Source: a candidate division WOR-3 bacterium (GTDB lineage: Bacteria; Hydrothermota; Hydrothermia; B15-G9; WFZT01). Taken from it: a stretch of DNA of 35,467 bases. Both the position numbers and the translations under genes were made by a program. The DNA is taken from NCBI GenBank assembly GCA_026986655.1, contig JALSOD010000190.1, forward strand, positions 1 through 35,467, in the 5' to 3' direction. The notes under the pieces were generated by a model. It ran no database searches. It was not told where the DNA came from and saw only the letters and a program-made list of their open reading frames with translations. Below are positions 7,795 to 35,467 of the stretch, piece after piece; positions within the stretch are counted from its first letter, which is position 1; each line of letters starts with the position of its first letter.

Positions 7795-8279
7795 CTTTTG
7801 CACCACCTAACTTCTGTATTATCTGACACGACAACAAAAACTGAAGGATCAGTTTCCAAAACTTCATAAAGAACTGGAAGATCAGTTGATAACCCTTTTA
7901 CGGCAACAATTTCTCCAACAGATAGTACTCTACCCTTTAAAATGAGCTTTATTAAATCTTCCTTCGTTCTTGCAATTATTCTCGGAATCCACGTATGCTT
8001 TGAGAGCTCCTCTCCTGCTAAGACTACCCTTTTAGCTATTGCAGGCTCAAATTTATCAACTTCAACGTAATCACCAATCTCTATGCCAGCATTCTTCGCT
8101 GTGACTTCGTCAAGTCAAATAACCCTCTTATCCCCTCTCTTAGTCCAGACCTTTGTAGCAGTTTTCATCTTCCCTGAAATAAGCACATATTCCCCGGGTT
8201 GAATTCCTATATTCTTGCTAATCCTAACAATACCTCTATATTTCTCCACCTCTTTGAGAATTGCTGTCTTCAGCTTCAT
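7791..8279 (-). pseudogene. Stand-alone CDC48/VAT N-terminal-domain-like protein with an in-frame TGA
   Basis: ATG 8279-8277 forms ATGA with the stop of the upstream PIN gene. The frame reads MKLKTAILKEVEKYRGIVRISKNIGIQPGEYVLISGKMKTATKVWTKRGDKRVI*, with TGA as codon 55 (8117-8115). The same frame continues LDEVTAKNAGIEIGDYVEVDKFEPAIAKRVVLAG... to TAG at 7793-7791. Confidence 0.5.
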
Positions 8280-8740
8280 AATAATCTTCTAAGGGTATCT
8301 TTATCGATTCTTATTCCAGCCTTCACTAATTTTTCAATTTCAGTGTTCAGATCTTTAATTAAACCGAGTTTATATGCTTTCAGTAATATACCTAAGGTTC
8401 CAACGATCTTAATACCCCTTCTTTCGGCTATCTTTCTTCCTTTTCTTTCATCAATTATTAATGGTAATTTAAGTTTTTCAGCTAACATTATAGCTTCAGC
8501 CTCTCCTCTTCCCAAAATTAGCTCCAATTCAGGGCTTATTTGAGCTGTTTCCACCTTAATCCAGCCATTATTTACACCTTCCTCCACCTCTTTGCTACCG
8601 GCCCTTCCAGCTCCAACTACCACAACCTCACGATAAACGGATTTAGGAATGTATACAAGCTTAAATAAATCCTTGAGTAGGTTAAATCTGTCTATTTTGG
8701 CGAGTAAAATTAGTGGTGATGAGTTAGATACTGTCGACAT
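8276..8740 (-). CDS. DUF3368-type PIN-like nuclease toxin (pair 2)
   Basis: 154 aa: STVSNSSPLILLAKIDRFNLLKDLF...GEAEAIMLAEKLKLPLIIDE. It overlaps its antitoxin gene. Confidence 0.8.
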   Translation of the reverse strand: MSTVSNSSPLILLAKIDRFNLLKDLFKLVYIPKSVYREVVVVGAGRAGSKEVEEGVNNGWIKVETAQISPELELILGRGEAEAIMLAEKLKLPLIIDERKGRKIAERRGIKIVGTLGILLKAYKLGLIKDLNTEIEKLVKAGIRIDKDTLRRLL

Positions 8741-14900: not shown

Positions 14901-14989
14901 GATGCAGCAAGAACGCTGATAGGATCGTAAATATACTTTGTGTAGAGGTAGTATGAATCGCATGCAACTCTAAAGAGGGGATATAGCAT
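11957..14989 (-). CDS. SNF2-family (SF2) helicase/translocase with a C-terminal DUF3883-like PD-(D/E)xK nuclease-fold domain
   Basis: 1010 aa. Helicase motifs: LLPYQLEDF (Q/Ia-like), ETGLGKT (I), VVVDELHRA (II), LTATPH (III), ILVATDAAGESLNLQ (V), QRVGRVYRYGQ (VI). C-terminus: ELAGMEFVLKWEEKEGRIPKDVSAEGRGYDIESFDPITGEKRRIEVKSFKN...LTENEF..A.....YYLYVV (DUF3883-like). Confidence 0.85.
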   Translation of the reverse strand: MLYPLFRVACDSYYLYTKYIYDPISVLAASKINLLPYQLEDFLNLLDLADSGMPVRVLIAYETGLGKTILAGLFIKEMILRNENTRILIVTPPTVQYQWQDELESKFGVKFSLLKEVLNEGKDPLKQKWLIASMDTLKSERWLSRIEEGQYRWDIVVVDELHRATPENRRAQLIQVLRDRTRHMLALTATPHDGKEENFIYRLSLINRNVDETNWEEFVRNYTFRRKKRDAVDLEGKKIFPQAVITQTFEIEPDKKEKEFYWRVEDYIRNYYKLAEQENNRGIGLVATIIGRTVSSSIAAGVAALKRRLKRLIEGTAETYNLDELLTQINQAEEEGDDAKVEELRNKILEYVPPEKRELIETEKKILQELIELGEKLLERGRDSKTKKLLQIIMEPLQRGYKIIIFTQFLATLFSLKKVLEDVYGPENVVIIHGGMSHEEKKNAVAELWNRAKILVATDAAGESLNLQAANVIIHYEIPWNPVVYIQRVGRVYRYGQKNNIFIYSMLPVFKVEKRVLEVVIEKIRTIERDFDIGSVEIIGTIISEKDIEDEIRKAYVRDEVEKAAEGVKEKFERGKPILEKIRLVLEKAEAAKRHVRAEKLFEDKGVIELITEEDIRKYLFYFREAGLGSGNFYDDFVFFEIQSDEIDIDSILLERKPTRAEILDLKYENTLSKRDLKLDNPVIRKALYIGMCKRGKAIFTGDTEGYGEVRILKLFDNFGNPFFEIPVVIFNGEVKPYSFLQTLEPLVLTEDIEKEIFKRLSPKKLEISNKEYIERLKSEQRQYLMQRVKRALEALKMGEDYYKRYFDESVAKIRLKEIEEQKKREYARTLRVIEKLSEPIAEFWVLKPENVSDLLIGVAESTKDRAILSKITDIIEEFDPELWKKKRDVELAGMEFVLKWEEKEGRIPKDVSAEGRGYDIESFDPITGEKRRIEVKSFKNEPEKITLTENEFKAAKFYGKTYYLYVVRYALDRTRTTLEIINDPVNKLDFEIEYRPYYVYRLRKASKNI

Positions 14990-14993
14990 GATC

Positions 14994-15470
14994 TCACCCT
15001 ATAAAGATGTCTCCAAACTTTTCCTGAAAAGCTTTAAGAATGAAATTGAATTCATGAGACTCAAGTACTCCTAAACCGTAGCCATCGATGTAATCTTGAA
15101 TCTTTACGAACTTCTTAACTACTGGCTCTCTTGAAAAGATCATAGCTGAAAAGGAAACTCGCCAAGGAAAGAGTACTCTTTTTGATTTAAGCTCAATATC
15201 CCAAATTGGAGTTTGATCATCAAAAAATCTCTCTTTTATGACTCCTATGGCATGAATTTCTCCCGTTTTCGCAATTTGAAAAACTGCAACATCAAAAGGT
15301 TTTATTTGATTATATTTCCTTAAGAAATTTCTCCAGTTCTTATTCAGCTTATCTTTTAGTTTCTCTCGTTCCTCACTGACATAATCTGGATCGAAGAACC
15401 CCCACAGCAAGTGCCTACATCCAGTTTCAATGTTTTCAAGGCTATGAGAGCTGAAGATCCAGTAAGTCAT
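14994..15470 (-). CDS. EVE/PUA-like small protein (divergent paralog of 22412..22858)
   Basis: 158 aa. MTYWIF...LLWGF, IKPFDVAVFQ, GEIHAIGVIKERF and LFPWRV align by eye with MAYWLC...[27 protein letters not shown] and TFPWRV of the other ORF. Its ATG overlaps the methyltransferase stop (ATGA). Its stop is 4 nt from the helicase ATG. Confidence 0.5.
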   Translation of the reverse strand: MTYWIFSSHSLENIETGCRHLLWGFFDPDYVSEEREKLKDKLNKNWRNFLRKYNQIKPFDVAVFQIAKTGEIHAIGVIKERFFDDQTPIWDIELKSKRVLFPWRVSFSAMIFSREPVVKKFVKIQDYIDGYGLGVLESHEFNFILKAFQEKFGDIFIG

Positions 15471-18085
15471 TTAACACCCCACCTTTCCAATCCAATCGTC
15501 TCTATATGCTTTAATATCTCTGCAGCTTTCTTTGCTTCTCTGTCGTTCTGTCTTTTTGGATCTTGTCTAATCTTTGCGAGAGCTTTAAGGACACCGATTA
15601 TGGCTTTCCTTGAATACGGACACTCGCTCACGACTTTATCAAATCCCTTTAGCCCTTCGATGTCATAAGCCCTTAGGGCTCTGTGAACGTAATCGATTAG
15701 GCTACTGCCCTTTATAGCATCATAGCCAGCAACTTCAAGGTTAAGATCTCCTCTGTAGTAATCTTGGAGGATAACGACTTTCCTACCCTTCTTCTTTTCT
15801 ACCTTAATGATTCTGCTCTTTTCAAGGTCTTTTTCGTTCAATCCAAGGCTTTTAATGAACTGGTTGGCTGTGTCGTAGTCCATCGTATCCATACCGTTAA
15901 GACGGGAGTAAACGTAGAACGTCGTAACAGGATCGGCTTCCTCTCCGATCGTCTTTCTTGTTATGTATTTTGCCATTATCGTTTGAGCGATTTCAATCGC
16001 ACTCTTAGCAGTTATCTTACCTGAATAACTCTTAATTTCCGCGTAGTTCGTGAGAACTTCTAAAGCAACTCCCATTGCAGCGACGAGAAGATCGGAACCC
16101 TTAAGTCCGTATTTTTCTAACATCTCCGCTCTTTCGTAGATTCTCCGCTCAATTTCTGGCATTATATCCTCAAGAAAGCCTACTTTGTTTTCCTTTCTCT
16201 TTCTTGCTGAAATTATTAGGCTATGGTATATGGACTTCTTTCCTCTTGCAACTGAACTCTCGCTATGTTCAGTATGAATTGGGAAAGTTGCGGTAATGTT
16301 AAAGCCAGACAGTCTTAAAGCTTCAAGAACAAAATACCAAGCTTCGGGGTTTTTATGAGCAAAGAATAAGACGAGAATTCCATCATCGTCAAGGAGGTTG
16401 TATATGTTCTGCATTGTTTTTATAAAGAGCTTGTTGAAGAACTCTTTGTCTCTGTCTCCTCCAACGTCGAGTTCTTCCTTTGTTTCTACTCTGTCGTTCT
16501 TGAAGAATCTGGACTCTTTTTCAAAGAGATGTCCGATTATACGCTTGTGCCAAATGTAGAAAACCTCACTGACCTCTCCATACGGAATATCGTCGTAGTA
16601 GGGAGGATCAGTAACTATAACTCTAAACGTCTTCTGAGGTTTCCATGAAGCAGTGGACTCGTTTATGATCTGAATATTGCTGTTTGTGTTGGAAAGTTTC
16701 TCAATTGAATATTTTAAAGCGTCAAGAATGTCGTTTATATTGTTTACAAAAGTGCCAGATGATTTTACAAATGGGTTTACTTCAATGTGATTCCACATCA
16801 TTGCAATTCCTCTTTGAGAGAAAACGTGATTTACAACTTCGTATGATGCTTCCCAACTTGCTGCTCTTGAATTAAAGCGTAGATTTTTTGTTATGATAGA
16901 CGCAAGATATACACCTATTGCCTTTGCATACTCTTCATCTTTCTTAGCTATTTCATTAACAATCTTTCTCGCTTTTTCAGCATATTTTATCATCAGGAGT
17001 AACTGTCTTGGATTGAAGAGCTGATACCATTTTGGCAGATATAAATATATCCACATAGCTCTATTATTCTCTGGGATATTTCCATCGGGAATCAATCCCT
17101 CACGATAAAACCTGAACCAGTTCTTCTTTAACTCTTTCTCAGCTTCTTTAAAAGCTTTTAAATCCTCATCAGAAGGAATATCGTATTCTTTACCACCTCT
17201 ATTGCCAGAAAGTAAAACAACAGCAAGCAATTTCTCTTTCTCATTCTCTCTTATCTGCTTCACAATCTCTTCATTGGGTATGTGCGCTCCACATTTCAAG
17301 CAAACTCCATTTCCCCTTGAGACGTTTCCTTCTGGAGCCTTACCTTCTTTAATCTCAAGCTTCAGCTCGTTACCTTCAATCTTATAGGCAAGATACAGGT
17401 TCTTGCCACTTTTAGTCTTAGCAAGTTGCCACGAACCAACCAAAGGCGTTTCAAATCCACACTGTGGACATTTAACAACCCAAGCATAGATGTATGCTGC
17501 TACATCCTTTCCATTATGTTTTGGATAGAATTTGCCAAGATCTTCTTTAAGTTCGTTGAAGATTTGATTTGCATACTTCTTAACATCGTAGTAAAGTTTC
17601 ATTCCATATTTCTTTGGATATTCAAGAGTAGCCTTCAAAATTAGGTAAGCAACAGGATTGTAATCGACTGCAACGACGTTACATCCAAGCCTTAAAGCTT
17701 CAAAAGGAATCGAGCCTCCACCAGCAAATGGATCGAGAATCGTTGGAATTTCTCCCCACGTTTTGATTATTGCATCTCTCAAGTATTCAGCGGGAGGATC
17801 TTGAGTATGTGCTCTTGGACCCTCGTCTATATTTCTTGGGATTCTTAAGATATGTAGCAAACTTGTTTTCAAGTTTCCATTATCCATAAACGACTTCGGG
17901 ATGTTATCTTTAGAAAGCAGAGCACCCAATACTGCGGCTCTTGCGGTTATTAAGGGTTTTCTCGCCCACCAGTAGTGTAATTCGAAAATGGGTGGTTTAG
18001 CGTTTCCAAGCTTCTCCTTTCTTGCCTCCTCACTTATTTCCTCAGTTGGGATAAACTCTTCAATTAGTAACCTTTTCATAAGCAT
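15467..18085 (-). CDS. DUF1156-type Zn-ribbon DNA methyltransferase (N6-A or N4-C class, DPPY catalytic motif)
   Basis: 872 aa. N-terminal LHYWWARKP (DUF1156 signature), DPFAGGGSIPFEALRLG (SAM motif I), CPQCG...CLKCG (Zn ribbon) and VTDPPYYDDIPY (motif IV). The start may be the third codon (ATG 18079), which is better spaced from the GGTGA that overlaps the vapC stop. Confidence 0.85.
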   Translation of the reverse strand: MLMKRLLIEEFIPTEEISEEARKEKLGNAKPPIFELHYWWARKPLITARAAVLGALLSKDNIPKSFMDNGNLKTSLLHILRIPRNIDEGPRAHTQDPPAEYLRDAIIKTWGEIPTILDPFAGGGSIPFEALRLGCNVVAVDYNPVAYLILKATLEYPKKYGMKLYYDVKKYANQIFNELKEDLGKFYPKHNGKDVAAYIYAWVVKCPQCGFETPLVGSWQLAKTKSGKNLYLAYKIEGNELKLEIKEGKAPEGNVSRGNGVCLKCGAHIPNEEIVKQIRENEKEKLLAVVLLSGNRGGKEYDIPSDEDLKAFKEAEKELKKNWFRFYREGLIPDGNIPENNRAMWIYLYLPKWYQLFNPRQLLLMIKYAEKARKIVNEIAKKDEEYAKAIGVYLASIITKNLRFNSRAASWEASYEVVNHVFSQRGIAMMWNHIEVNPFVKSSGTFVNNINDILDALKYSIEKLSNTNSNIQIINESTASWKPQKTFRVIVTDPPYYDDIPYGEVSEVFYIWHKRIIGHLFEKESRFFKNDRVETKEELDVGGDRDKEFFNKLFIKTMQNIYNLLDDDGILVLFFAHKNPEAWYFVLEALRLSGFNITATFPIHTEHSESSVARGKKSIYHSLIISARKRKENKVGFLEDIMPEIERRIYERAEMLEKYGLKGSDLLVAAMGVALEVLTNYAEIKSYSGKITAKSAIEIAQTIMAKYITRKTIGEEADPVTTFYVYSRLNGMDTMDYDTANQFIKSLGLNEKDLEKSRIIKVEKKKGRKVVILQDYYRGDLNLEVAGYDAIKGSSLIDYVHRALRAYDIEGLKGFDKVVSECPYSRKAIIGVLKALAKIRQDPKRQNDREAKKAAEILKHIETIGLERWGVK

Positions 18086-18478
18086 TCACCTTATCCAGAG
18101 TATATCTGGATAGACTCCTTCAAATTCTCTATCACCCGTAACTATAATTCCTTTCTTATCGATAGCTGTTGCAACGACGAAGGCATCCGCATAAGATAAG
18201 CTATACATAGCTTTAATCCTTCCGGCAGTCAAAGCTAAGCTTTCGTTAACTTCTACAAACTGAATGGGTAATCTTTTTACAATTGCTACCGCTTCATTGG
18301 CCTTTGCAGTCCCAAATTCTCTTGCAACGATGTAGTAAACCTCCCCAAGATTGACGTAGTTCATGAACAGTTTTATTTCACCCTTTTCAGCCTTATCAAT
18401 AAGTTCTTCGATCTTATCTGCTCCTTCCTCATTACCGAGATATGCAAGAACGGCAAAGCTATCTAAGACGTAATTCAT
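18086..18478 (-). CDS. vapC: PIN-domain toxin VapC
   Basis: 130 aa: MNYVLDSFAVLAYL (first acidic residue), ...YADAFVVATAI...IVTGDREF. It overlaps vapB by 4 nt. Its stop is directly adjacent to the methyltransferase ATG. Confidence 0.85.
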   Translation of the reverse strand: MNYVLDSFAVLAYLGNEEGADKIEELIDKAEKGEIKLFMNYVNLGEVYYIVAREFGTAKANEAVAIVKRLPIQFVEVNESLALTAGRIKAMYSLSYADAFVVATAIDKKGIIVTGDREFEGVYPDILWIR

Positions 18479-18705
18479 CTTTTCATCTCCCTCTCTTTCT
18501 CCTCCTTCTTATACTCAGCCATTATCTCGTCAAGCTTCCTCTTAAACTTCAGAAAGCCTCTTCCCTTGGTCTTAGGAACGGGAACTATGACAATCTCACC
18601 CCCAAAATCTAAAATCTCCACTTCGCTCCCAGCTTCAATTCCATACTTCCTCCTCAACTCCGCCGGCAAGACTATCTGCCCTTTAGTCGATATCTTAACA
18701 GGCAT
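18475..18705 (-). CDS. vapB: AbrB/SpoVT-type antitoxin VapB
   Basis: 76 aa: MPVKISTKGQIVLPAELRRKYGIEAGSEVEI is a swapped-hairpin AbrB/MazE-like motif. Confidence 0.85.
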   Translation of the reverse strand: MPVKISTKGQIVLPAELRRKYGIEAGSEVEILDFGGEIVIVPVPKTKGRGFLKFKRKLDEIMAEYKKEEKEREMKR

Positions 18706-18802
18706 ACAATCACCGTATAATGTTCTACCAACTTAGATATATGTTTTACCATACTGCCAATTCTCTTACACATGTCTAGGCTTTAAAATAATGAAATGAT
18801 GA

Positions 18803-19174
18803 TTATATAAGCCCATACAGCACTCTAAAGGCATAAGCTCCCTTCGAATTAGAAGAGAGCTTCCAAGCCCAGAAAAACACCTCCTCAGGCGGTAAATTAA
18901 GGATAACATCAATGAGTTTATACCTTTGCTCAGCCCTCTTCATCGAATTGAGAACTTTAAAAGCAACGTAAATTCTCATGGCTTTCTCGACATCATCTGT
19001 CTTATTTTCCATTTTCAGCTTTTTCATTAAACTCTTTATCGCCTCTTTTCTCCAAGACGTTGCTGAAGCTATTTTCATCCTGTATCCTCTATCTTTGTTC
19101 TGGAAATTCTCGTACATGGTTATATACTTCCCAGTTTCAACGATTTCGTAGATGGTATTCCTAAACGCAAGCAT
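18803..19174 (-). CDS. Hypothetical 123-aa helical protein, translationally coupled to the DUF499 gene
   Basis: The ATG at 19174-19172 directly follows the DUF499 stop (19177-19175, reading TAAATG). I recognise no motif. The C-terminus is [30 protein letters not shown]. Confidence 0.6.
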
Positions 19175-22100
19175 TTACGTCACCCTAAACCACTTCTGCG
19201 ATTTCGTCGTTGCAAGTTGCTCAACAAATAGCTTAAAGTCTTCATCGATCTTAACAGGATTTTCAAGCTCTAATTCAAATGTATATTCAGGATTCTCATC
19301 AAGGCTTGCAATTTTCTGTAAGATTTCATCCACAACTCCAACCTTAGCAAGTTCAACCTCACACTTAAAGGTTGTAACATTCTTTCCTTCAACTTCGACC
19401 TTAATAGTTCCTGAAAGGTTTAAGAATGGAACTGCACCGCTTATACTCAGCGAATCTTCCTTTAAGTTATCCGATCCCTTACCAGAAACTTTGATAAGAG
19501 TAACACTCCTACCACTGAAGTCCTCGAATTTCTCAAGAATATCATCTGAAGAAACTAAAGTCTCTTTAGGTTTAGGTGGCTGTGGAGAAGGTGTAACTAC
19601 TGGAGGCTTAACTCTTCTAAGCTTATCTTTGATTTCGTCAGCGTATTCCCTCCTGAAGATGTATGTTACTTCACCTTCACTTCCGAAAGCGTCTAAGACT
19701 GCTTTAGCTTCATCATTCTCCAATTCTACTCCACTTTCAAGCTTCTGTATCGACGAAATATCCCCAGCAAATAACTCAAGTTTATCTGATCGCTTTGCAG
19801 CATCAATTATATCCTTTCTGCTATACTCTAGGAGCTGTGAATCTATCTTTGAAAATTCCTCGTAATTCTTATCTCCGAGAACCTTAATAATTTTCTCAGC
19901 TATTAAATCAGCTCTCTTCTTCTTCGCAACTTCTAGAAGTTTTTCTGCAAAATCTTTTTTAAGGATGTAATCTGAACTTCTAACCTCAGCTACCTCAACA
20001 CCCATTTTGAGGTTCTTGAGAATTTCATCACTTTTTTCAAGATCGACTTCCTCAGGTTCACAGATTTCTCCTCTGAAAATGGCGATATCTCCAGTTTTAA
20101 CCAACTCTTTCAAGCTTGCTTTTAGAAGCTTTGCTGGGATGAATGGATAGCTCGTTGAATTTGCAGTAGTTTGGATAAGATCTGAGAACTTCACGTAATC
20201 CTTTTCAAGACCCATCACTCCTTCAACGTAGTCTATACTTGCGGTGCTTATGACCTTACCATACTTCTTTTCAAGATCTTCAAATATCCTCTCTGAGTAT
20301 TTTGCCTTATCATCATAGGTAATAGGTGAAATTGGCTTCACTTCTTGATCATTTTTCTTGTAAAATCCTGCATAAGAGTATAAGTTTATCAGCTTTTGTG
20401 CTGCTTTTGCATAGATTTTCTTCTGAATATCTCTAAGCTCCTTTATGAACTCCTTGTCTTTTGACCTTTCCTTCTTCAACTTCTCGCATGCAATCAATTC
20501 TTTAACTGTATCCCTAAACGAAGGTATCTCCGATGGTATTGGAAACAGCAAAATGACTGAATTTCTGTTTGGCGTGGTTATAGAAAGCATTTGTGAGAAT
20601 ATCCTACTGTAAACTTCCCTTCTTACAACATCTTCAGACACACTCTCATACTCCTTAGTGCTCTTTATTGCCCTATAATAGTTAAAAACATCTTCGTAAT
20701 CTATTACAAAAATGTTCAACCTGTTTGGATCGGTATTATCCTTCTTTATCTCCTTATCAAAGATATTAACGGCTATAGTCTCTGTAGATGGGATTATCTT
20801 AGAAATAAACTCTTTTTGGAGATGTAGCTTAACTTCCTCATCTTTAACATCTCTGGCAGCTATCCTGACTAAAGCTCTTGGATTTACTTCAGTCTTGAAG
20901 AAGTATCTATCCGTTCCTTCAGCTCTGAAAAGATGCGTAGTAATCTCATCATATAACCTCTCAAGATATGCGTCTATCGTTGATGGATCGAGATTAGCAT
21001 CGCCAAGCGCTCTAAACACCATTCTACCATTTGCTCCTCGCTTTGTTTCGTCTGGGAAGAGGGAGTAGAGGTAAACCGTAGTTGCGATCCTTACGAAGTT
21101 ACCGAATCTAATCTTACCACCATCAGCCTGCTGGGCGTGGGCCGTTCCTTCACTTGTAGCTATATCGGTTTGGACGACTTGATCGAGCTTCTTTCCAAAT
21201 ATTTCAGCCGTAAGCTTGCTTCTAAGTTCGGAATCAGATAGATCAACCTCACCAGCAGAAATGAAGAGACTTGTTTCTGGTAACTCATCAACATGCCTCA
21301 ATAGGTTCACTATAACTCTCGCCATTATCTTAAGAATTCCTCTCGTTCTCTGGAAGTTCTCATATGTGCCAATTCTACCAAAGAATATCTCTTCAATAAG
21401 TTCAGGATGGAAGGGATAACACTCGGCAAGTCTTTCTTCTCTATAAGCGTCGGCAACCCCGAGCTTGGCAACGTAAAGCTCATGGAGAGCTTTGGCAACC
21501 TTCCTGGCGAAGTTCTCATCAATGTGCTTTATGAATCTTTTCTTCAGAATTCTTATTATATCCTCCTTTGAAACTGGTTCTATCCTTATTGCTCCTCTTT
21601 CAGCTATTGCAGTGATATCTCTCAAAATTTGAGCCTCTTTTTGATAAGCTTCACTTTCTGGTATTGTAAGCACGACAATAGAAGTTTTTGTAGCCTCTGT
21701 AGCAACAAAGAGTGAGTGTATAAAACCCTTGTTTTGGGCAATCCTGCCGTTACCTTCTTTTTCGCCCATAATCTTAGAGAAGTAAACTACGAGTTCATCA
21801 AGGAGGAAAATAACAGGCTTACCGATTCTTCTTATAGCGTTTTCAATTTCTTTAGCGGTAGGAGGTAAAGTTTTTGAAGTTATAGAAACATCTCCTAATT
21901 CCTTCCCAATAACGTTCCAGAGGTTTGTTTCAGGATCAACGTTATGTCCGTCTATTGCAACTATCTTTACTTCAGGGATTGTTTCAAGTCCAAGTTCTTT
22001 AAGAATCTGTCTAATCTCCTGACTATTCAAAGCTACATCTCTATTCTTGAATACATGGTAGAGCATGACAAGAGTATGAGTTTTACCGCCTCCAAAGGTT

Positions 22101-22402
22101 GTATCAAGAATTATTGCATAGGATTCGTCTGAGATGGATGCCACTCGTGACAGGACTCTCATTAGTATGGTCTTCATGTAATCCGAAAAGTGCGTCTTTT
22201 TGAAGAATTGGACAGGATCAAGATAGATAGGATGAGCGTTTCCGCTGAGAAAGTTTGAGAATTCTACTTCAAAGATCGCTTCATTTATGCTTGCATGAGG
22301 GTTCGATGCAATTCTAACTAATTCATCGTCGAAAACGACTTTACCTTCCTTTATTGCATTCTTAAGAGATAAAGACTCAAAGTTGTAGACAGTCATAGTC
22401 AC
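19175..22402 (-). CDS. DUF499-family P-loop ATPase (large, about 1075 aa)
   Basis: LDTTFGGGKTHTL (the FGGGKTH P-loop typical of DUF499) and VIFLLDELVVY (Walker B-like). The likely start is ATG 22396 (GGAGGGTG upstream) rather than the GTG at 22402. Confidence 0.8.
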   Translation of the reverse strand: MTMTVYNFESLSLKNAIKEGKVVFDDELVRIASNPHASINEAIFEVEFSNFLSGNAHPIYLDPVQFFKKTHFSDYMKTILMRVLSRVASISDESYAIILDTTFGGGKTHTLVMLYHVFKNRDVALNSQEIRQILKELGLETIPEVKIVAIDGHNVDPETNLWNVIGKELGDVSITSKTLPPTAKEIENAIRRIGKPVIFLLDELVVYFSKIMGEKEGNGRIAQNKGFIHSLFVATEATKTSIVVLTIPESEAYQKEAQILRDITAIAERGAIRIEPVSKEDIIRILKKRFIKHIDENFARKVAKALHELYVAKLGVADAYREERLAECYPFHPELIEEIFFGRIGTYENFQRTRGILKIMARVIVNLLRHVDELPETSLFISAGEVDLSDSELRSKLTAEIFGKKLDQVVQTDIATSEGTAHAQQADGGKIRFGNFVRIATTVYLYSLFPDETKRGANGRMVFRALGDANLDPSTIDAYLERLYDEITTHLFRAEGTDRYFFKTEVNPRALVRIAARDVKDEEVKLHLQKEFISKIIPSTETIAVNIFDKEIKKDNTDPNRLNIFVIDYEDVFNYYRAIKSTKEYESVSEDVVRREVYSRIFSQMLSITTPNRNSVILLFPIPSEIPSFRDTVKELIACEKLKKERSKDKEFIKELRDIQKKIYAKAAQKLINLYSYAGFYKKNDQEVKPISPITYDDKAKYSERIFEDLEKKYGKVISTASIDYVEGVMGLEKDYVKFSDLIQTTANSTSYPFIPAKLLKASLKELVKTGDIAIFRGEICEPEEVDLEKSDEILKNLKMGVEVAEVRSSDYILKKDFAEKLLEVAKKKRADLIAEKIIKVLGDKNYEEFSKIDSQLLEYSRKDIIDAAKRSDKLELFAGDISSIQKLESGVELENDEAKAVLDAFGSEGEVTYIFRREYADEIKDKLRRVKPPVVTPSPQPPKPKETLVSSDDILEKFEDFSGRSVTLIKVSGKGSDNLKEDSLSISGAVPFLNLSGTIKVEVEGKNVTTFKCEVELAKVGVVDEILQKIASLDENPEYTFELELENPVKIDEDFKLFVEQLATTKSQKWFRVT

Positions 22403-28177: not shown

Positions 28178-28375
28178 ATGATAGACAACGTAACCTTAAT
28201 CAAAGACTTGAAAGAGTTAAGAGAGAAAATTCAAGAAGACTTAGAAAGACTAGATTCTATCATCGAGACGTTAGAAATAATGGCTGACGAAGATTTGATG
28301 AAATCAATTAAGAAGGGCTTAGAAGATATTGAGAAGGGCGATGTCGTCGATTTTGAAGACCTTCTGAAAGATTAA
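28178..28375 (+). CDS. Small acidic helical antitoxin-like protein (archaeal RelB-like)
   Basis: 65 aa, helical and acidic (DLKELREKIQEDLERLDSIIETLEIMADEDLMKSIKKGLEDIEKGD). A TATA-like TTTATTATATA lies about 27 nt upstream, so the transcript may be leaderless. Confidence 0.5.
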   Translation: MIDNVTLIKDLKELREKIQEDLERLDSIIETLEIMADEDLMKSIKKGLEDIEKGDVVDFEDLLKD

Positions 28376-28629
28376 TAAACCTCTTTTCTGTGACCTATCG
28401 AAACAAGCCAAATTATCTTGTTATTCTCGTCAACTTTGTAAATGATTCGGTATTTCCCAACTCTCAATGATCTCAATCCGGCCAAATCGTAAGATAACGG
28501 TTTACCAGCATATGGATTTTCCTTTAACTTTTCCAAAGATTTCAGAATACGCTCCTTTAGAGGTCCATCTTTCTTAGTTAGATCCTTAAACCTTTTCTTG
28601 AATTCTTTCGATGGTTTAATAGTCCACAT
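28372..28629 (-). CDS. relE: RelE/ParE-family toxin
   Basis: 85 aa: LRVGKYRIIYKVDENNKIIWLVSIGHRKEVY is a classic RelE/ParE C-terminal block. An AT-rich TATA-like region lies upstream. Confidence 0.8.
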   Translation of the reverse strand: MWTIKPSKEFKKRFKDLTKKDGPLKERILKSLEKLKENPYAGKPLSYDLAGLRSLRVGKYRIIYKVDENNKIIWLVSIGHRKEVY

Positions 28630-30260: not shown

Positions 30261-30503
30261 ATGGATAAGGTAGTGGTACGGGTAGATAGAAAGGGAAGAC
30301 TTGTCATTCCGAAAAAGCTGAGAGAGAAGTTGGACGTTCGTGATTACGTTGAAGTAAGCGTTGAGGGAGACAAGATAGTCATAAAGCCTATTAAATCCGT
30401 TGCCGACGAATTCTTCGGAGTTTTTAAGGTTGAGAGGTGGCCCAAGGATTTGGACGAGTTTCTAGCTAAAGAGGTGACGGAAGGATGGTTAAGAGATATG
30501 TAG
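30261..30503 (+). CDS. vapB: AbrB/SpoVT-type antitoxin VapB
   Basis: 80 aa: VRVDRKGRLVIPKKLREKLDVRDYVEVSVEGDKIVIKP. Confidence 0.8.
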   Translation: MDKVVVRVDRKGRLVIPKKLREKLDVRDYVEVSVEGDKIVIKPIKSVADEFFGVFKVERWPKDLDEFLAKEVTEGWLRDM

Positions 30504-30898
30504 ACGTCAACGTATTCGTTTACTGGCTTTGCGGTCATCCTGAGTTTGGCGGGAAAGCCAAGAAGTGGGTCGAAAAGATCGAAAAGGAAAGAAATTTTGT
30601 AACTTCAACACTAACCCTTTACGAGACTATCGTAATCGTTGCTGGATTGACGAATAACAGTTTAAAGGACGAAAACTTCGTTAAGACTGTCATCGACTCT
30701 TTTGAGAGTTTGAAGAGTTTAAAGATCGAACCGCTCGTCAAAGAAGATTTTGCAAACGGGGTAGAAATTATGAACAATTTTGGATTAGATTTCGAAGATT
30801 CGTTGCACTTAGCGGTAGCTCTGAGGAAAAACGTAGATGAAATCGTTTCAAACGATACCGACTTCGATAAGGCTAAGGTAAAGAGAGTTTTTAGTTAA
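30485..30898 (+). CDS. vapC: PIN-domain toxin VapC
   Basis: 137 aa: YVDVNVFVYWL (first Asp), LYETIVIV, DSLHLAVAL, IVSNDTDFD. It overlaps vapB by 19 nt. Confidence 0.8.
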   Translation: MVKRYVDVNVFVYWLCGHPEFGGKAKKWVEKIEKERNFVTSTLTLYETIVIVAGLTNNSLKDENFVKTVIDSFESLKSLKIEPLVKEDFANGVEIMNNFGLDFEDSLHLAVALRKNVDEIVSNDTDFDKAKVKRVFS

Positions 30899-31163
30899 TT
30901 AACTCATCGTCTTCGGAGAGTATGTCTTCGACGTCGAACGACTCTTCAATGAATTCTGGTATATTTAGTTCGTCTTTGAGCGCTTCTTTGACTTTCTCCG
31001 CCAATTCTTCGTAGTGTTCAACTTTCGTGTGGTAGATATCTCTGACGATTTCGTTTTCTGGATTGAACTCCTTAATTCTCTTTAGCAGATACTTTAGTGC
31101 TTCGTATTGCCAAAGGACATAGTCTTCCTTAGAGATTCTGTTTATTGCTTTGACTCTTATCAC
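30891..31163 (-). CDS. Hypothetical acidic-tailed small protein (start uncertain)
   Basis: The C-terminal roughly 90 aa of the track ORF look protein-like (KEDYVLWQYEALKYLLKRIKEFNPENEIVRDIYHTKVEHYEELAEKVKEAL...DILSEDDELIN). The N-terminal part of the track ORF is the S/L-rich antisense of the wHTH gene. GTG 31163 is a possible start. Confidence 0.35.
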   Translation of the reverse strand: MIRVKAINRISKEDYVLWQYEALKYLLKRIKEFNPENEIVRDIYHTKVEHYEELAEKVKEALKDELNIPEFIEESFDVEDILSEDDELIN

Positions 31164-31215
31164 TTCATATATTTCGCAAATCTTTAATAGTTGGTTGTTT
31201 CTATCGACACGTAGT

Positions 31216-31470
31216 ATGCAGATATTGAATGTTCTTTTATCATACAAAGTTTTAAAGGTTTTGAGGGAGCTATCGCTGAAACCTAAGACGAAGGAAGAGT
31301 TAAGAGAAAGTGTAAGCACATCAGTTTCGTCGCTTCTACAGATCCTTGATAAGATGATTGAGTTAGGGTTAATAGAGAGAGAAGACGACACGTTTAGGAT
31401 TACACCTAAGGGTAAGTTTATTCTGCTAATTCAAGAGACTGTAAGGAAGTATGAGAAATTAAATTTTTAG
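31216..31470 (+). CDS. Winged-helix DNA-binding module (N-terminal part of a DUF1724-type regulator, apparently split)
   Basis: MQILNVLLSYKVLKVLRELSLKPKTKEELRESVSTSVSSLLQILDKMIELGLIEREDDTFRITPKG. I chose the internal Met at 31216. Confidence 0.6.
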   Translation: MQILNVLLSYKVLKVLRELSLKPKTKEELRESVSTSVSSLLQILDKMIELGLIEREDDTFRITPKGKFILLIQETVRKYEKLNF

Positions 31471-31481
31471 AGAAATTAGAA

Positions 31482-32024
31482 TTGAACGAGTACGACCTCG
31501 AAGACTTGCCGAATTACCTCGTTGCGAGGTTTTACGAGCTTAGTGAGGTGAGAGTGGTCGAGAGAGACGAGGACGTATTCACGCCACACGAGGAGTTCAT
31601 AGAAAATCTGACGAAATCTGAAGAGATATACGGGTATGCGTCGGTTTTCTTTCCGGAATACGTTGAAACGTTTCTGAGATTTGCTGAAGAGGACAAAAAG
31701 ATCGAAATAGTCGTTAACGGGAGAGTATTTAGTCGAATAGTTAGAGAATATAGGAGTGAGCTTGAGAAAGGGATATGCAAGAGAAACGTGAGTTTTTACG
31801 TTTCGAAAAGAGATTTTAGGTTTTCTTTCGTCGTTACCGACAAATTCTTCTCAATATCGTTTTACAGGAGGAACGGTTTCTTCGATTACAAGAGAGATTT
31901 CGTTTGCTTCAGCGAAGATTGTCTGCGGTGGGGTAGGGATCTGTTCAACTACGTTAAGGATAACTCCGTAAGAGTAGACAGAGTAAAGCTGAAAGAGTTG
32001 GTTCGGAGTCTACGATTATCCTAG
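31482..32024 (+). CDS. DUF1724-like domain protein (C-terminal part of an archaeal wHTH regulator)
   Basis: 180 aa from a TTG start, 11 nt after the wHTH stop and in a different frame. Size and position match the C-terminal domain normally fused to the wHTH in this regulator family. Confidence 0.5.
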   Translation: MNEYDLEDLPNYLVARFYELSEVRVVERDEDVFTPHEEFIENLTKSEEIYGYASVFFPEYVETFLRFAEEDKKIEIVVNGRVFSRIVREYRSELEKGICKRNVSFYVSKRDFRFSFVVTDKFFSISFYRRNGFFDYKRDFVCFSEDCLRWGRDLFNYVKDNSVRVDRVKLKELVRSLRLS

Positions 32025-32651
32025 CTTTCCTCTCATCGATTAAGATTGCTATCTGTGTCAAGACGAAACTCGAAATTAAGACTGGATGAAAGTGAAATAA
32101 CGCCATCATATGTGCCACCATGTTCAGAAAACTCAAAAACACCTTGAAGTATTTTCCGAGAAGTTTCGGAAGGGTGAGTATTTCGTCTCTATCTATGTCC
32201 TTCAGGTCGAAAATTGCGGAGTTTACGAACAGTTTAAGGAAGTAGAAGGAAAATATTGGAAAATCGAACGTTTCGAGGGATAAGGTTATCGACAAACTCC
32301 ACGAAAGTCCTATGACCACATTTTTAACACCGCAACCGGCTTTTAACCTAAACCTTCTCCCCTTAAATTTTAAGCCGTAAGAGTAGAGGAAACCTACGGC
32401 GATTAGAAGTAAAGGAACTATCAAGATACCTCTTACTGCGTAAGCAATTAAGCCGAAGAAGTAAAAAGGATTGAGTGGTAAGTTTTTCCACCGTAGTCCT
32501 CTATTCTGTCAAAGCTGTAAATGCTAAGCGTTAGAAAGAACGCTCCTATTAGTAAAATCGGATCTGGACTTAGAGATAAAAGAATGTACGCGACGTACAA
32601 CCTCATAGCTCCAGAAACGGCAGTTGGTATCGATACAATTACGTTTCTCAT
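31954..32651 (-). pseudogene. UbiA-family prenyltransferase, frameshifted at an A5 run
   Basis: The two track ORFs (32448..32651 and 31954..32424) join if the frame shifts at GGTGGAAAAACTT (T5 on the plus strand, 32483-32487): ...YSFDRIEDYGG | KNLPLNPFYFFGLIAYAVRGILIVPLLLIAVGFLYSYGLKFKG. A second Asp-rich motif, DLKDIDRDEILTLPKLLG, is present. Confidence 0.55.
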
Positions 32652-32848: not shown

Positions 32849-33352
32849 ATGCTAAGAAAGTTGTTAGAAGTGCTATTGGTTTTGGTGATGTTGGGAAGCG
32901 TAGTTAGTCCAGCGATGGCAGCAACTGAAAAGATAGACAAAAATACAAGAAAAATAAATATGAGAACAGAAATTTTTAGAGAATTGGATAATTTAAAAGC
33001 AAAGCTTGGGATGCACAACATATTTAAAATAGAAGTGGTGAAAAAATTCAGTAAAAAAGAAGATGTTGAGAAGATTGTTACAAACATCGTCAAGACTAAG
33101 CTTGACAATATAGGGTTAAATAAAAAAGATAAAATTAAAATAATAAAAACTATACAGAATTATCTTAAGTCAAAAAAGCTTAAGTCACCAGTAATTGCGA
33201 AAATTAAATGGCTCCCAGAAGGAGAAGAATCAATTGCCGTATTTGACAACGGTAAAATAGTATTTGACTCCTATACGTGGTTCTATGGAACTAAATTTGT
33301 TGCAAAGAAAAATACAAAGTCCTATGGCAACCAAATCCGTTCACTGGTCTGA
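32849..33352 (+). CDS. Secreted Lys-rich protein (Sec-type signal peptide)
   Basis: MLRKLLEVLLVLVMLGSVVSPAMA|ATEK... GGTGGTGAAGGAAG lies upstream of the ATG. The signal peptide is paralogous to that of 34389..35204 at the nucleotide level (shared GGAAGCGTAGTTAGTCCA). Confidence 0.7.
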   Translation: MLRKLLEVLLVLVMLGSVVSPAMAATEKIDKNTRKINMRTEIFRELDNLKAKLGMHNIFKIEVVKKFSKKEDVEKIVTNIVKTKLDNIGLNKKDKIKIIKTIQNYLKSKKLKSPVIAKIKWLPEGEESIAVFDNGKIVFDSYTWFYGTKFVAKKNTKSYGNQIRSLV

Positions 33353-34064
33353 TCATATGCCTCTCCACAAAGTAGTTGATATTTATAACATCTATGGAGT
33401 AAAGATAGCCACTTGGACATACTATGTTGACATTCTTACCGAGATATCCCCATCAAGTCAAATAGAACTTAGTGGAACTGGCTACATAGATGGGTCAGTA
33501 AAAGTGAAGATATCGACAGAGGGTTTCACCATAAATAAACCAGCTGTATTAATTGGGGATGGAGCATCAAGCGGTTACGCCTTTAACACATACGAATATG
33601 TTATAAAAGTAAAAATTACTACGCCAAATCAAGATTTAACGGACATAAATAAATACGACCACTTTGCAGCTGGAACAGGTTCAAGAATTGATGCCAATAA
33701 TGGAGAGGATTCGGCAAGCGTGTCCATAGGTGTTAGTTTGGGGCCGTTTAGTGTTACTAACACTCCAAATAATAACTTTGTGAAAGCGGAGGCTGGGGAT
33801 ACTTACGGTAGATATATAAAGATCATAAACAAATACAACCCATGGCATTTAACACATTTAGGTAACGATGTTGGAGTATATTTTGATGGTGGTGAAATGG
33901 GTTACAGCTTAAAATTTAGGGTAGGAGATAGCCTAAATCCAAGTTTAGGGACGGTCGATGTAACATATAAGATAAATTATATTGCAGTGCTTGGGGCTGT
34001 AGAATTCCACAGCGTAGCCTCTCCAGATACATATACAGCACATTTAGAGTTCATGAGAGGTTGA
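33264..34064 (+). CDS. Beta-rich hypothetical protein; start unclear, possibly the frameshifted continuation of 32849..33352
   Basis: Long ORF in the +1 frame that overlaps the previous ORF by 89 nt. None of the candidate Mets (33324, 33357) has an SD-like site. An A5 run at 33308-33312 lies in the overlap. Confidence 0.55.
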   Translation: MTPIRGSMELNLLQRKIQSPMATKSVHWSDHMPLHKVVDIYNIYGVKIATWTYYVDILTEISPSSQIELSGTGYIDGSVKVKISTEGFTINKPAVLIGDGASSGYAFNTYEYVIKVKITTPNQDLTDINKYDHFAAGTGSRIDANNGEDSASVSIGVSLGPFSVTNTPNNNFVKAEAGDTYGRYIKIINKYNPWHLTHLGNDVGVYFDGGEMGYSLKFRVGDSLNPSLGTVDVTYKINYIAVLGAVEFHSVASPDTYTAHLEFMRG

Positions 34065-34069
34065 GAAAT

Positions 34070-34402
34070 ATGATCAAATATCCAAAAATGGTCGTGTACT
34101 CTATAATTTTTTTGAATATCGTTATATTTTTGACGTCTATATTATATATTCCAAAACTCTTTAAATTTTCTATCTTATTTTCGTTATCTTCTATAGCTTT
34201 TATGTGTTTATACTTCAATGATAAAAAATTATTAGAAATATTAATTATTTTTATTATAATAATATTATTCGAATTTTTCTTGATAGATATTTTTCCGATA
34301 ATATCTGTTGGTATAGTTATATCTGTCATCGTATTTCCAATATTTTGTGGAGTGTTATGTCTTAAGAAAATCATGTCCGGTGACTGTAATGAAACGGGTT
34401 AG
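34070..34402 (+). CDS. Small 3-TM membrane protein in a very AT-rich segment
   Basis: MIKYPKMVVYSIIFLNIVIFLTSILYI...FSILFSLSSIAFMCLYF...LIIFIIIILFEFFLIDIFPIISVGIVISVIVFPIFCGVL. It starts 6 nt after the previous stop and overlaps the next gene's start. Confidence 0.5.
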   Translation: MIKYPKMVVYSIIFLNIVIFLTSILYIPKLFKFSILFSLSSIAFMCLYFNDKKLLEILIIFIIIILFEFFLIDIFPIISVGIVISVIVFPIFCGVLCLKKIMSGDCNETG

Positions 34403-35204
34403 GTTGTTGGTAGGAGTGTTGTTGGTTTTATTAATGCTCGGAAGCGTAGTTAGTCCAACGTTAGCTGTGAATGTCGAACAAAAGACTCCAGCATGTCCAA
34501 GTTGCTCAGAAGCTGTAACTGGAAAGTCAAAGATTGTAGTAATTGAAGCTAAAGGAATAGAGAGAAATACAATTCTTGCTAAGGCTTTGAAAAGTGAAGA
34601 TATGAGGAAAATTATGGACGAACTTACCAAGAAAGGTTACACTCTTAACCTATCGAGTGCCAAGATTGGTAAAATTATCACACAAAATCGCATAGCTGAG
34701 GTTGCGGTAATACCGATGAAGTCGAAGCAAGGGGAAGTTAGGTTGATCTATGTCTCAGTGAATGGAACTGTAAAAGTAAGAGCTGTTGAGGCTATTGAGA
34801 AAAGCGATCCAAAGCAAATTATAGTTTACCGCATAGAGAACGGAAAAATTGAAAGCTATGCCTTGCAAATTAAAGGAGAAGGATGTACAGAGACTTGCGG
34901 ACTTATCTGTGGGATGTCAAGCGCAACCATATGTTTAATTTTGTGCGCAGTCGTTGCAGATAATCCGGCGTGTGATATCGGATGCTCAATTGTTATGGGT
35001 GGCATTTGCGGTGCTGTGTGTGACCAGTGGTGCACAGGAAACATTAATCCATGTGATGCTGGGTGTGGAGCATTTTGTTCGGGAATGTGCGCAGGAGTAT
35101 GTATTGGTATAACTAAGTGGCTAGGAGTGCCAGAGCTCACGTACTTCTGCGAGAAATACGCGTGTTCTCCAGCTTGTACTGGAGTCTGTGAGGTAATATG
35201 TTGA
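34389..35204 (+). CDS. Secreted precursor-like protein with a C-terminal 106-aa Cys/Gly-rich hydrophobic domain (20 Cys, 13 CxxxC intervals)
   Basis: MKRVRLLVGVLLVLLMLGSVVSPTLA|VNVEQ... is a signal peptide; the Met at 34389 is preferred over the track start at 34347. The C-terminus (34884-35201) reads CTETCGLICGMSSATICLILCAVVADNPACDIGCSIVMGGICGAVCDQWCTGNINPCDAGCGAFCSGMCAGVCIGITKWLGVPELTYFCEKYACSPACTGVCEVIC. Confidence 0.75.
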   Translation: MKRVRLLVGVLLVLLMLGSVVSPTLAVNVEQKTPACPSCSEAVTGKSKIVVIEAKGIERNTILAKALKSEDMRKIMDELTKKGYTLNLSSAKIGKIITQNRIAEVAVIPMKSKQGEVRLIYVSVNGTVKVRAVEAIEKSDPKQIIVYRIENGKIESYALQIKGEGCTETCGLICGMSSATICLILCAVVADNPACDIGCSIVMGGICGAVCDQWCTGNINPCDAGCGAFCSGMCAGVCIGITKWLGVPELTYFCEKYACSPACTGVCEVIC

Positions 35205-35467
35205 GCAAAAAGGATTTTTTAATTTTTCTTTTAAATTTTGGGGCAGGTTTGGCCGTGCTGATGGTAGCATTTCACTACTTTCTGTCTTTACCGGTTGAGA
35301 GTAGTTTCGTTGCGGCTTTGATCTTGTCTTTAGTTCTTGACGTTGCGTACATTCTAAACAAGAAAGTTAGGCGGATAAGGAGAGGGGACAAGGTAGTTTT
35401 AGTTATGCTAACATTGGTTTGTCTGGTTTACGGAACTCTTGCAATCCACCACATTTTCGTTCTATCA
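35198..35467 (+). CDS. Membrane protein (partial, runs off the window), translationally coupled to the Cys-rich gene
   Basis: ATG 35198 overlaps the TGA at 35202-35204. It reads MLSKKDFLIFLLNFGAGLAVLMVAFHYFLSLPVESSFVAALILSLVLDVAYILNKKVRRIRRGDKVVLVMLTLVCLVYGTLAIHHIFVLS..., 90 codons open to the window end. Confidence 0.6.
   Translation, partial: MLSKKDFLIFLLNFGAGLAVLMVAFHYFLSLPVESSFVAALILSLVLDVAYILNKKVRRIRRGDKVVLVMLTLVCLVYGTLAIHHIFVLS

Follow-up and report, generated by a model that had tools for sequence, protein, structure and literature searches.

A candidate Sec-exported pro-archaeocin with a new type of cysteine-rich tail on a HalI-like domain

To our knowledge, the archaeocins whose sequences are known amount to no more than a handful, and the characterised ones all come from haloarchaea or Sulfolobales. 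The present analysis concerns a gene at the end of contig JALSOD010000190.1, whose full length of 35,467 bp is called the window in the following; the gene encodes a protein of 271 amino acids whose C-terminal part consists of a cysteine-rich (CxxxC)n tail. The closest described system is that of halocin C8, in which the 283-amino-acid secreted precursor ProC8 is cleaved into HalI, the protein that confers immunity, and the Cys-rich halocin C8 of 76 amino acids, and in which ATP-binding cassette (ABC) transporters are encoded downstream in the halC8 locus (preprint 10.64898/2026.07.27.741052). In addition, halocin C8 homologues recognised by the TIGR04449 model have been catalogued in Archaeoglobus fulgidus DSM 4304 (WP_148183473.1) and other Archaeoglobaceae (same preprint, Table S2), which runs counter to the suggestion, made in a preliminary description of this DNA, that no such precursor is known from a hyperthermophile.

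The protein of the window resembles ProC8 from Natrinema sp. AS7092 in its size (271 as compared to 283 amino acids) and its N-terminal export signal, in an N-terminal alpha/beta domain that is homologous as judged by profile comparison, and in a C-terminal peptide that is rich in Cys, hydrophobic and of equal grand average of hydropathy (GRAVY). It differs in the tail, which comprises 106 amino acids and 20 Cys arranged as a double palindrome of the (CxxxC)n type, whereas HalC8 has about 70–76 amino acids with 10 Cys, and in its origin from an anaerobic, Archaeoglobi-related source instead of a halophile. With the catalogued Archaeoglobi homologues it shares the taxonomic neighbourhood and the precursor superfamily; those homologues, however, were found via the TIGR04449 tail model, which the window tail escapes, so that the subfamily of the window protein would be missing from censuses of that kind. 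Taken together, we consider that the product of the gene is probably a pro-archaeocin exported via Sec, which belongs to the halocin C8 precursor superfamily, carries a new variant of the tail and is accompanied by a cognate membrane immunity or export partner. The gene and its parts are as follows.

34379..34383, plus strand: GGTGA, a ribosome-binding-like motif 5 nucleotides before the ATG; an identical GGTGA precedes the start in related loci.
34389..35204, plus strand: precursor gene, 271 amino acids plus stop, recognised from the open reading frame (ORF), 8 close homologues and the profile search; halocin C8 precursor superfamily, (CxxxC)n tail.
34389..34466, plus strand: Sec-type signal peptide, residues 1–26, MKRVRLLVGVLLVLLMLGSVVSPTLA followed by VNV, with predicted cleavage after TLA.
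34494..34505, plus strand: CPSC (CxxC) motif, residues 36–39, in the linker after the signal peptide.
34527..34868, plus strand: HalI-like, Hac8_like_N-related alpha/beta domain, residues about 47–160, delimited by AlphaFold2 and hhalign.
34884..35201, plus strand: Cys-rich hydrophobic tail, residues 166–271, for which two helical hairpins with antiparallel arms are predicted (C166..C186/C195..C215 and C222..C238/C254..C271).
35198..35467, plus strand: first 90 codons of the gene for a polytopic membrane protein that runs off the contig end; a putative partner for immunity or export.

The reading frame is open from either 34347 or 34389 to 35204 on the plus strand, a GTG at 34347 giving 285 and the ATG at 34389 giving 271 amino acids. 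The latter start is supported because all homologues begin at the equivalent Met and because the GGTGA motif is found 5 nucleotides upstream. A chance ORF is ruled out by the conserved homologues and by the conservation of the tail among orthologues. In the N-terminus, MKRVRLLVG..., neither a twin-arginine motif nor a lipobox could be read from the sequence, and since a twin-arginine motif is absent the signal is regarded as Sec-type. The CPSC motif behind it is found in P0001, in P0005–P0008 and in many distant members of the family (related proteins and loci are designated by P and L numbers), yet it is absent from the orthologues P0002 and P0003 and therefore not essential. Our analysis confirmed the layout given in the preliminary description, namely a clear signal peptide, an ordinary alpha/beta part and a C-terminal region of 106 residues in which 20 Cys, 13 of their intervals being CxxxC, are separated mainly by Gly, Ala, Ile and Val.

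The relationship to the halocin C8 precursors is concluded from the N-terminal domain. As signal peptides and Cys-rich tails could each create a spurious similarity, both were removed before the hhalign comparisons and the N-domains alone were compared. In detail, the group of the window protein (16 sequences) matched the N-domains of the TIGR04449-bearing group with a probability of 99.1% (E 6e-19, 129 columns), those of the non-halophilic TIGR04449-bearing subset with 99.4% (E 3.8e-21, 143 columns) and those of the haloarchaeal subset with 87.8% (E 3.3e-6, 104 columns), while reversed-template controls gave E-values of 0.18 and 0.025. In the haloarchaeal alignment, residues 53–155 of the window protein fall onto residues 52–174 of the Hfx. 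volcanii protein, which is the PF22862 region; indeed, the halocin C8-like proteins of haloarchaeal plasmids carry PF22862 Hac8_like_N with E-values of 1e-44 to 1e-51. The haloarchaeal set had been found by tblastn with a HalC8 query, and only the annotated database sequences retrieved in this way were used further. At the level of the superfamily, and by the measure of these alignments, the N-domain of the window protein is a divergent homologue of HalI/Hac8_like_N that lies outside the curated model.

AlphaFold2 predicts for residues 50–160 one strand and two helices besides a sheet of six antiparallel strands, with a predicted local distance difference test (pLDDT) value of 80–90 when the 8-sequence alignment was used and of 90–98 with the 150-sequence alignment. 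Foldseek searches of the PDB with the two models, from the 8- and the 150-sequence alignments, returned no match at E<=0.001 (best E 0.15–0.36), and a sequence search of the PDB with the family profile remained at noise level (E 0.31). Likewise, neither the whole protein nor its N-domain or tail taken separately rose above noise when scanned against Pfam and NCBIfam.

The tail is characterised by the number and the regular spacing of its cysteines. Of 22 Cys in the precursor, 20 fall within the last 106 residues (hypergeometric P 2e-7) and make up about 19% of them, followed in the composition by 14 G, 10 I, 10 A and 8 V. The intervals between the tail Cys are 4, 5, 7, 8, 9 or 16 only, and the motif CxxxC accounts for 13 out of 19, a number that did not occur in any of 100,000 shuffles of the tail residues (maximum 9). 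In the first half, from C166 to C215, the gaps form a palindrome (4,4,8,4, then 9, then 4,8,4,4) in which every pair of positions sums to 381; the second half, from C222 to C271, is likewise palindromic (4,4,4,4, then 16, then 5,4,4,4), with a pair sum of 493. Compared to a shuffled order of the gaps, the palindromic spacing has a P of about 0.014. In P0004 an insertion adds one extra Cys on either side of the first loop and retains the palindrome (4,4,8,4,4, then 9, then 4,4,8,4,4), and P0110 shows an 8-rung palindrome.

This palindromic spacing suggests a model in which the tail forms a pair of helical hairpins with antiparallel arms, the helices of each being joined by five rungs. AlphaFold2 predicts the tail as helical, with 4–5 helices at a pLDDT of 55–70. 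Small Tim proteins, with their twin CX3C helix-loop-helix, and the plant alpha-hairpinins, antimicrobial peptides of the form CX3C-Xn-CX3C, have two disulfide rungs per hairpin. As a structural class, with helices and bridges predicted, the window tail would belong with these proteins, its CxxxC motifs lying on two antiparallel helices with a mirrored spacing that allows inter-helix rungs; the likeness is a structural analogy in which no homology is expected, and unlike the two rungs found there, five are predicted here for each of the two hairpins.

Regarding hydrophobicity, the GRAVY of the tail is 0.96 as compared to 0.96–1.18 for haloarchaeal HalC8 domains, and residues 172–190 are transmembrane (TM)-like with a Kyte-Doolittle (KD) value of 2.39, forming the sole tail helix above the usual TM threshold. 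Among the orthologues the tail is 83% and 65% identical and the N-domain 62% and 59%; the tail is thus more conserved than the N-domain, from which it follows that it is under selection. Identities from global alignments between the tails of paralogues are inflated by Cys matches and were therefore excluded as evidence of relatedness. The search of relatives for the CxxxC-repeat domain and its neighbours, which the preliminary description had proposed, recovered the orthologue group, P0027 and the coupled membrane-protein genes, and among the matches listed the (CxxxC)n tail is limited to the orthologue group of the window protein, P0027 and three fragments. P0027 (310 amino acids) carries this tail behind a different N-terminal region, and in P0078 and P0100 an extra domain of about 110 residues follows the Cys-rich tail.

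Other assignments of the tail were rejected. A ferredoxin-type iron-sulfur (Fe-S) module would contain a CxxCxxCxxxC(P) motif, which is absent from the tail, and no Pfam or NCBIfam metal-binding family matched. A metallothionein-type module does not agree with the lack of dense CxC/CxxC motifs or with the hydrophobic residues between the tail Cys. The protein ends with ...CTGVCEVIC and has neither the motif of a PGF-CTERM-type sorting signal or S-layer anchor, nor a basic tail, nor a match to such a family. Finally, a precursor of a ribosomally synthesised and post-translationally modified peptide (lanthipeptide or sactipeptide) does not fit a protein of 271 amino acids with a folded domain of 115 residues, and none of LanB/C/M or radical SAM enzymes was seen among the scanned genes of the window or in the related loci.

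While a word-indexed search yielded 8 relatives of the window protein, in an exhaustive hidden Markov model (HMM) search with the window-family profile no fewer than 150 cluster representatives reached E<=1e-3, 47 of them E<=1e-10. TIGR04449 halocin_C8_dom is present in 23 of the 150 best matches of this profile, and NF040679 'halocin C8 precursor-like' in 4 of the same 150. The curated TIGR04449 cut-off of 24 is passed by P0019 (27 bits) and P0024 (35 bits), and the window protein alone matches P0019 at E 2.8e-9, scaled to a library of 1.84 billion sequences. P0008 and P0019 are canonical-tail paralogues that bear the same lineage-specific signal peptide as the window protein. The haloarchaeal members have RR motifs in their export signals, and many non-halophilic TIGR04449 members look Sec-type.

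Altogether, at least 14 tail clusters are found on one N-domain family. The related loci contain several paralogues that have the signal peptide and the N-domain in common and differ in their Cys-rich tails, each being followed by a different small multi-TM protein. Two of them are located as follows.

L005, 330–1052: paralogue, followed by a TM protein of 192 amino acids.
L003, 5565–6320: paralogue, followed by a TM protein of 127 amino acids.

This arrangement resembles the cassettes of polymorphic toxins or bacteriocins and their immunity proteins, with a conserved signal peptide and N-domain, at least 14 unrelated clusters of Cys-rich tails, an own membrane-protein gene beside each paralogue, variable loci and repeated assembly breaks. 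Unlike polymorphic toxins, however, the effectors would be small hydrophobic Cys-rich peptides and not enzymatic toxin domains, and the carrier is a HalI-like domain instead of an RHS, filamentous or secretion-system-linked module. Remnant or frameshifted copies of HalI-like precursors were observed beside intact cassettes (L014 7118–7351; L005 1913–2727 and 5102–5371; L006 10092–10732), which points to turnover at these loci. When the collection of species-representative genomes was searched with the five closest sequences, a single related locus emerged, L006, in an Archaeoglobales metagenome-assembled genome from Guaymas.

In P0100, P0102, P0120 and P0142, among the matches listed, a PspE-like rhodanese domain is fused N-terminally before the HalI-like domain and the Cys-rich tail, and may serve as a built-in helper for thiol oxidation or sulfur transfer. 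In L020 a lipoprotein (7746–8540) with a C-terminal thioredoxin domain and a CPHC active site, a DsbA-type motif, adjoins P0019, and small multi-TM proteins flank it. The CPHC lipoprotein and the rhodanese fusions point to a thiol oxidation chemistry that accompanies the Cys tails.

The gene downstream of the precursor begins with an ATG at 35198 and overlaps the TGA of the precursor (35202–35204) by 7 nucleotides, which amounts to translational coupling and agrees with the preliminary description. The same description had called the flanking membrane-protein genes small, which does not apply to this one: full-length homologues in related loci are polytopic membrane proteins of 292–330 amino acids, whose genes are coupled to that of the precursor in L005, L006 and L012 and follow it after a gap of 50 nucleotides in L001. 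The family comprises 24 clusters, none with a Pfam match. In related loci a membrane protein of about 100 amino acids and/or a LolA-like lipoprotein often comes next in the module, and in L014 the gene of a near-identical membrane protein comes immediately after those of an FtsX-like permease and an ABC ATPase, which is reminiscent of the ABC genes downstream of halC8. The contigs carrying the window gene (the window itself, ending at 35467, L010 and L011) all end inside the downstream membrane-protein gene, and the contigs of L012 and L013 are short. This recurrent break in the assemblies suggests repeats or strain heterogeneity just downstream of the precursor gene.

Upstream of the precursor gene, the following features were noted.

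34061..34402, plus strand: hydrophobic ORF of 113 amino acids with three hydrophobic segments, overlapping the precursor start by 14 nucleotides.
32849..34064, plus strand: two ORFs, one of 167 amino acids with the same signal peptide and one of 246–266 amino acids.
31150..32024, plus strand: HalR-like regulator with a helix-turn-helix and a FilR1_middle-type C-terminal part, distributed over two reading frames, 31150–31470 and 31482–32024; the Pfam labels are those of an identical contig.

The regulator links the locus to those of the halocins. In BLASTP, window positions 31482–32021 match the MarR-type regulator adjoining the halocin C8-like gene of Hfx. volcanii at E 4e-8, the regulator of L001 matches that of the same Hfx. 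volcanii gene at E 5e-4, and in L001 and L003, too, a regulator of this kind is situated upstream. The window locus thus has the context of the ProC8 family, in which a homologous regulator adjoins upstream and membrane, transport or ABC genes follow downstream. Opposite the regulator, at 31954–32651 on the minus strand, lies a UbiA-like prenyltransferase that is likewise divided into two ORFs; the combination of regulator and UbiA recurs in L003. Both split genes are possible pseudogenes or assembly errors.

The two ORFs at 32849..34064 have no Pfam or NCBIfam family match and no HalI-like domain, and are probably the first genes of the transcription unit of the precursor; the AT-rich region upstream of them resembles that of L014. 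The other flanking small membrane-protein gene of the preliminary description has its counterpart, upstream of the precursor, in the hydrophobic ORF at 34061..34402; the public gene call across this stretch is on the minus strand, however, and a small membrane protein is possible there but uncertain.

The core of the signal peptide, LLVLVMLGSVVSP, is conserved at the DNA level and heads other, unrelated secreted genes of the lineage. Near-identical copies of it were found in the window at 32849–32930 and 34389–34470, in L003 at 1479 and 5565, in L014 at 3705 and in L001 at 13546. In L003 and L012 about 100 nucleotides upstream are near-identical as well, with GTTTAGA/TCTAAAC palindromes and a TATA-like box. 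The common signal peptide and upstream DNA suggest either that the genes have a promoter or operator in common or that the cassettes undergo gene conversion with one another. A scan for sigma-70 promoters and terminators remained at the level of shuffled sequence, its models being bacterial and inapplicable to archaea. Rfam had no match in the window or in L003, including a GC-rich stretch at 3421–3600 of the otherwise AT-rich L003, which occupies the site expected for a precursor gene upstream of a membrane-protein gene.

The pro-archaeocin reading, which we favour, starts from the homology of the N-domain and the resemblance of the locus, and takes over the cleavage, immunity and killing, as well as the ladder that the tail would form, from the analogy with ProC8. 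In this model, five bridges, either disulfides or metal-bridged thiols, would zip each hairpin of the tail, the rungs being C166-C215, C170-C211, C174-C207, C182-C199 and C186-C195 in hairpin 1 and C222-C271, C226-C267, C230-C263, C234-C259 and C238-C254 in hairpin 2. By analogy with ProC8 the tail would be freed near the junction between QIKGEG and the following C, and the resulting peptide, very stable and active on the membrane or envelope, would be aimed at related archaea, while the N-domain might serve as a chaperone or as a neutralising (immunity) domain. The coupled polytopic membrane protein of about 320 amino acids would protect the producer or handle the peptide; in related loci it would be joined in this by the small membrane protein, the LolA-like lipoprotein or the ABC transporter. 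The HalR-like regulator upstream is the candidate for control of the locus.

Several observations weigh against this reading. PF22862 Hac8_like_N does not match the window protein at E<=1, and the full-length hhalign comparison of 8 family members with 3 haloarchaeal precursors was weak (4.7% probability), the N-domain relationship becoming clear only after the removal of signal peptides and tails and the addition of intermediate sequences. TIGR04449 halocin_C8_dom, a model of about 69 positions with some 10 conserved Cys, matches neither the whole protein at E<=1 nor the isolated tail at E<=10, and the hhalign comparison of the tail with the HalC8-domain seed gave a probability of 33% over 24 columns; an HMM built from three HalC8-domain sequences was too insensitive to be informative. 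A two-step link via P0068, P0097 and P0099 (E 2.9e-7, then 3.2e-6, with reversed controls at about 3e-3) suggests descent of the tail from a HalC8-like domain, but here the compositional bias of the Cys-rich sequence counts on the opposite side. The linker between the domains has about 5 residues as compared to about 60 in haloarchaeal precursors, so that processing may differ or be absent. In addition, the signal is Sec-type where that of ProC8 is Tat (twin-arginine translocation), and with Sec export the hydrophobic helices of the tail (residues 172–190 above all) could stop transfer and stay in the membrane of the producer. Stable extracellular disulfides are uncertain because Archaeoglobi are strict anaerobes. 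Finally, for the non-halophilic members secretion, cleavage, immunity and killing are all carried over by analogy. The likeness to the two-part halocin C8 precursor seen in the preliminary description is thus borne out by the N-domain, for which the comparison proposed there succeeded, by the HalR-like regulator and by the cassette pattern; it did not extend to the tail or to the type of signal.

An alternative is a membrane-anchored surface protein, in which, after Sec targeting, the hydrophobic, Cys-lined tail helices insert into the membrane of the producer itself as an anchor of 3–4 helices that displays the N-domain outside, perhaps in a stable envelope complex with the coupled polytopic protein for sensing, adhesion or envelope maintenance. 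The TM-like segment and the 4–5 tail helices predicted by AlphaFold2 would fit such an anchor, as would the very short linker, the integral membrane protein that is the downstream partner in several related loci, and the LolA-like lipoproteins of the same module, which are typical of envelope machinery. However, genuine HalC8 domains are equally hydrophobic and are released nonetheless, and a single tail helix passes the usual TM threshold. Moreover, the paralogues retain the N-domain but have hypervariable tails, which fits the diversification of an effector rather than an anchor, and in P0027 the same tail stands behind a different N-terminal region. We therefore regard an anchor as unlikely.

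A module handling thiols, metals or sulfur on the outside of a sulfur-metabolising anaerobe, which would serve detoxification, storage or a redox relay by means of two Cys ladders as binding sites for metal ions, Fe-S-like clusters or persulfide/polysulfide sulfur, appears still less plausible to us. Such a function would account for a tail of which 19% is Cys aligned on helix faces, and would suit the rhodanese sulfurtransferase fusions of four family members, the CxxC motif after the signal peptide and the relatedness to Archaeoglobi. That motif, however, is missing from P0002 and P0003, and the rhodanese and thioredoxin neighbours are explained equally well by the oxidative folding of a peptide; the tail contains neither the ferredoxin-type motif nor metallothionein-type clustering, the residues between its Cys are hydrophobic (G, A, I, V) and not polar as is usual in metal-binding proteins, and the family takes in precursors from aerobic haloarchaea with a demonstrated antimicrobial role. 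It has also to be asked whether the peptide is secreted for a non-lethal purpose such as kin recognition, signalling or a structural matrix, with the HalI-like domain as a pro-domain for folding or export only. Polymorphic tails and lineage-specific cassettes would fit the recognition of self and non-self just as well, and toxicity is known from haloarchaea alone; yet each tail variant is paired with a membrane-protein gene of its own, the classic signature of toxin and immunity, and the sole characterised relative is a lytic halocin, so that we give this explanation little credence.

Beyond the pro-archaeocin reading of the single gene, it is possible, although we consider it doubtful, that the HalI-like domain is a general carrier or pro-domain for a large and polymorphic set of Cys-ladder peptides, which some bacteria would have in addition to anaerobic and thermophilic archaea and which the curated halocin models miss. 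The (CxxxC)n double hairpin would then represent a new class of hyper-stable toxins with ten bridges that work hot in reducing, sulfidic habitats, with polytopic membrane proteins of a new family conferring the cognate immunity.

The remainder of the window contains a complete defence system and several other recognisable genes.

11957–22402, minus strand: complete Hma-type defence system, with small ORFs between the genes.
11957–14989, minus strand: HmaA, SNF2 helicase with NOV_C domain.
15467–18085, minus strand: HmaB, DUF1156 DNA methylase.
19175–22402, minus strand: HmaC, DUF499 ATPase.
3357–5832, minus strand: cluster for the biosynthesis of nicotinamide adenine dinucleotide (NadC, aspartate dehydrogenase, NadA).
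30261–30898 and 28178–28629: two toxin-antitoxin-like pairs in the interval that separates the defence island from the halocin-like locus, recognised from ORF translations only.

The best named relatives of the window NadA are those of Archaeoglobaceae, Archaeoglobus neptunius and A. veneficus, with 57–62% identity. Together with L006, these identities point to an uncultured archaeon related to Archaeoglobi as the source, the hyperthermophily of which we infer from its relatives only. One toxin-antitoxin-like pair consists of an AbrB/SpoVT-type antitoxin and a PIN domain protein, the other of a small antitoxin and a RelE/ParE-like toxin; pairs of PIN and ribbon-helix-helix (RHH) proteins were also observed inside the cassette arrays of L003 and L005.

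Halocin C8 homologues predicted in Archaeoglobus are already known. New are the (CxxxC)n double-hairpin tail, a fold predicted from its spacing, and the HalI-like carrier with its many types of tail, which the curated models fail to detect. The architecture of the halocin C8 precursor thereby extends, via the conserved HalI-like domain, to many tail types that are not seen by TIGR04449 and PF22862, and since curated models miss HalI-like carriers with other tails, censuses based on such models undercount the archaeal antimicrobial candidates. With a tail of 106 residues that can be synthesised, a predicted ladder of ten rungs and a candidate immunity gene, antagonism among Archaeoglobi-type anaerobes becomes directly testable. 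Even if the peptide is inactive, the family still defines a new predicted extracellular domain, confidently folded and with no structural relative found in the PDB; if it is active, the peptide would be interesting as a scaffold of extreme heat stability.

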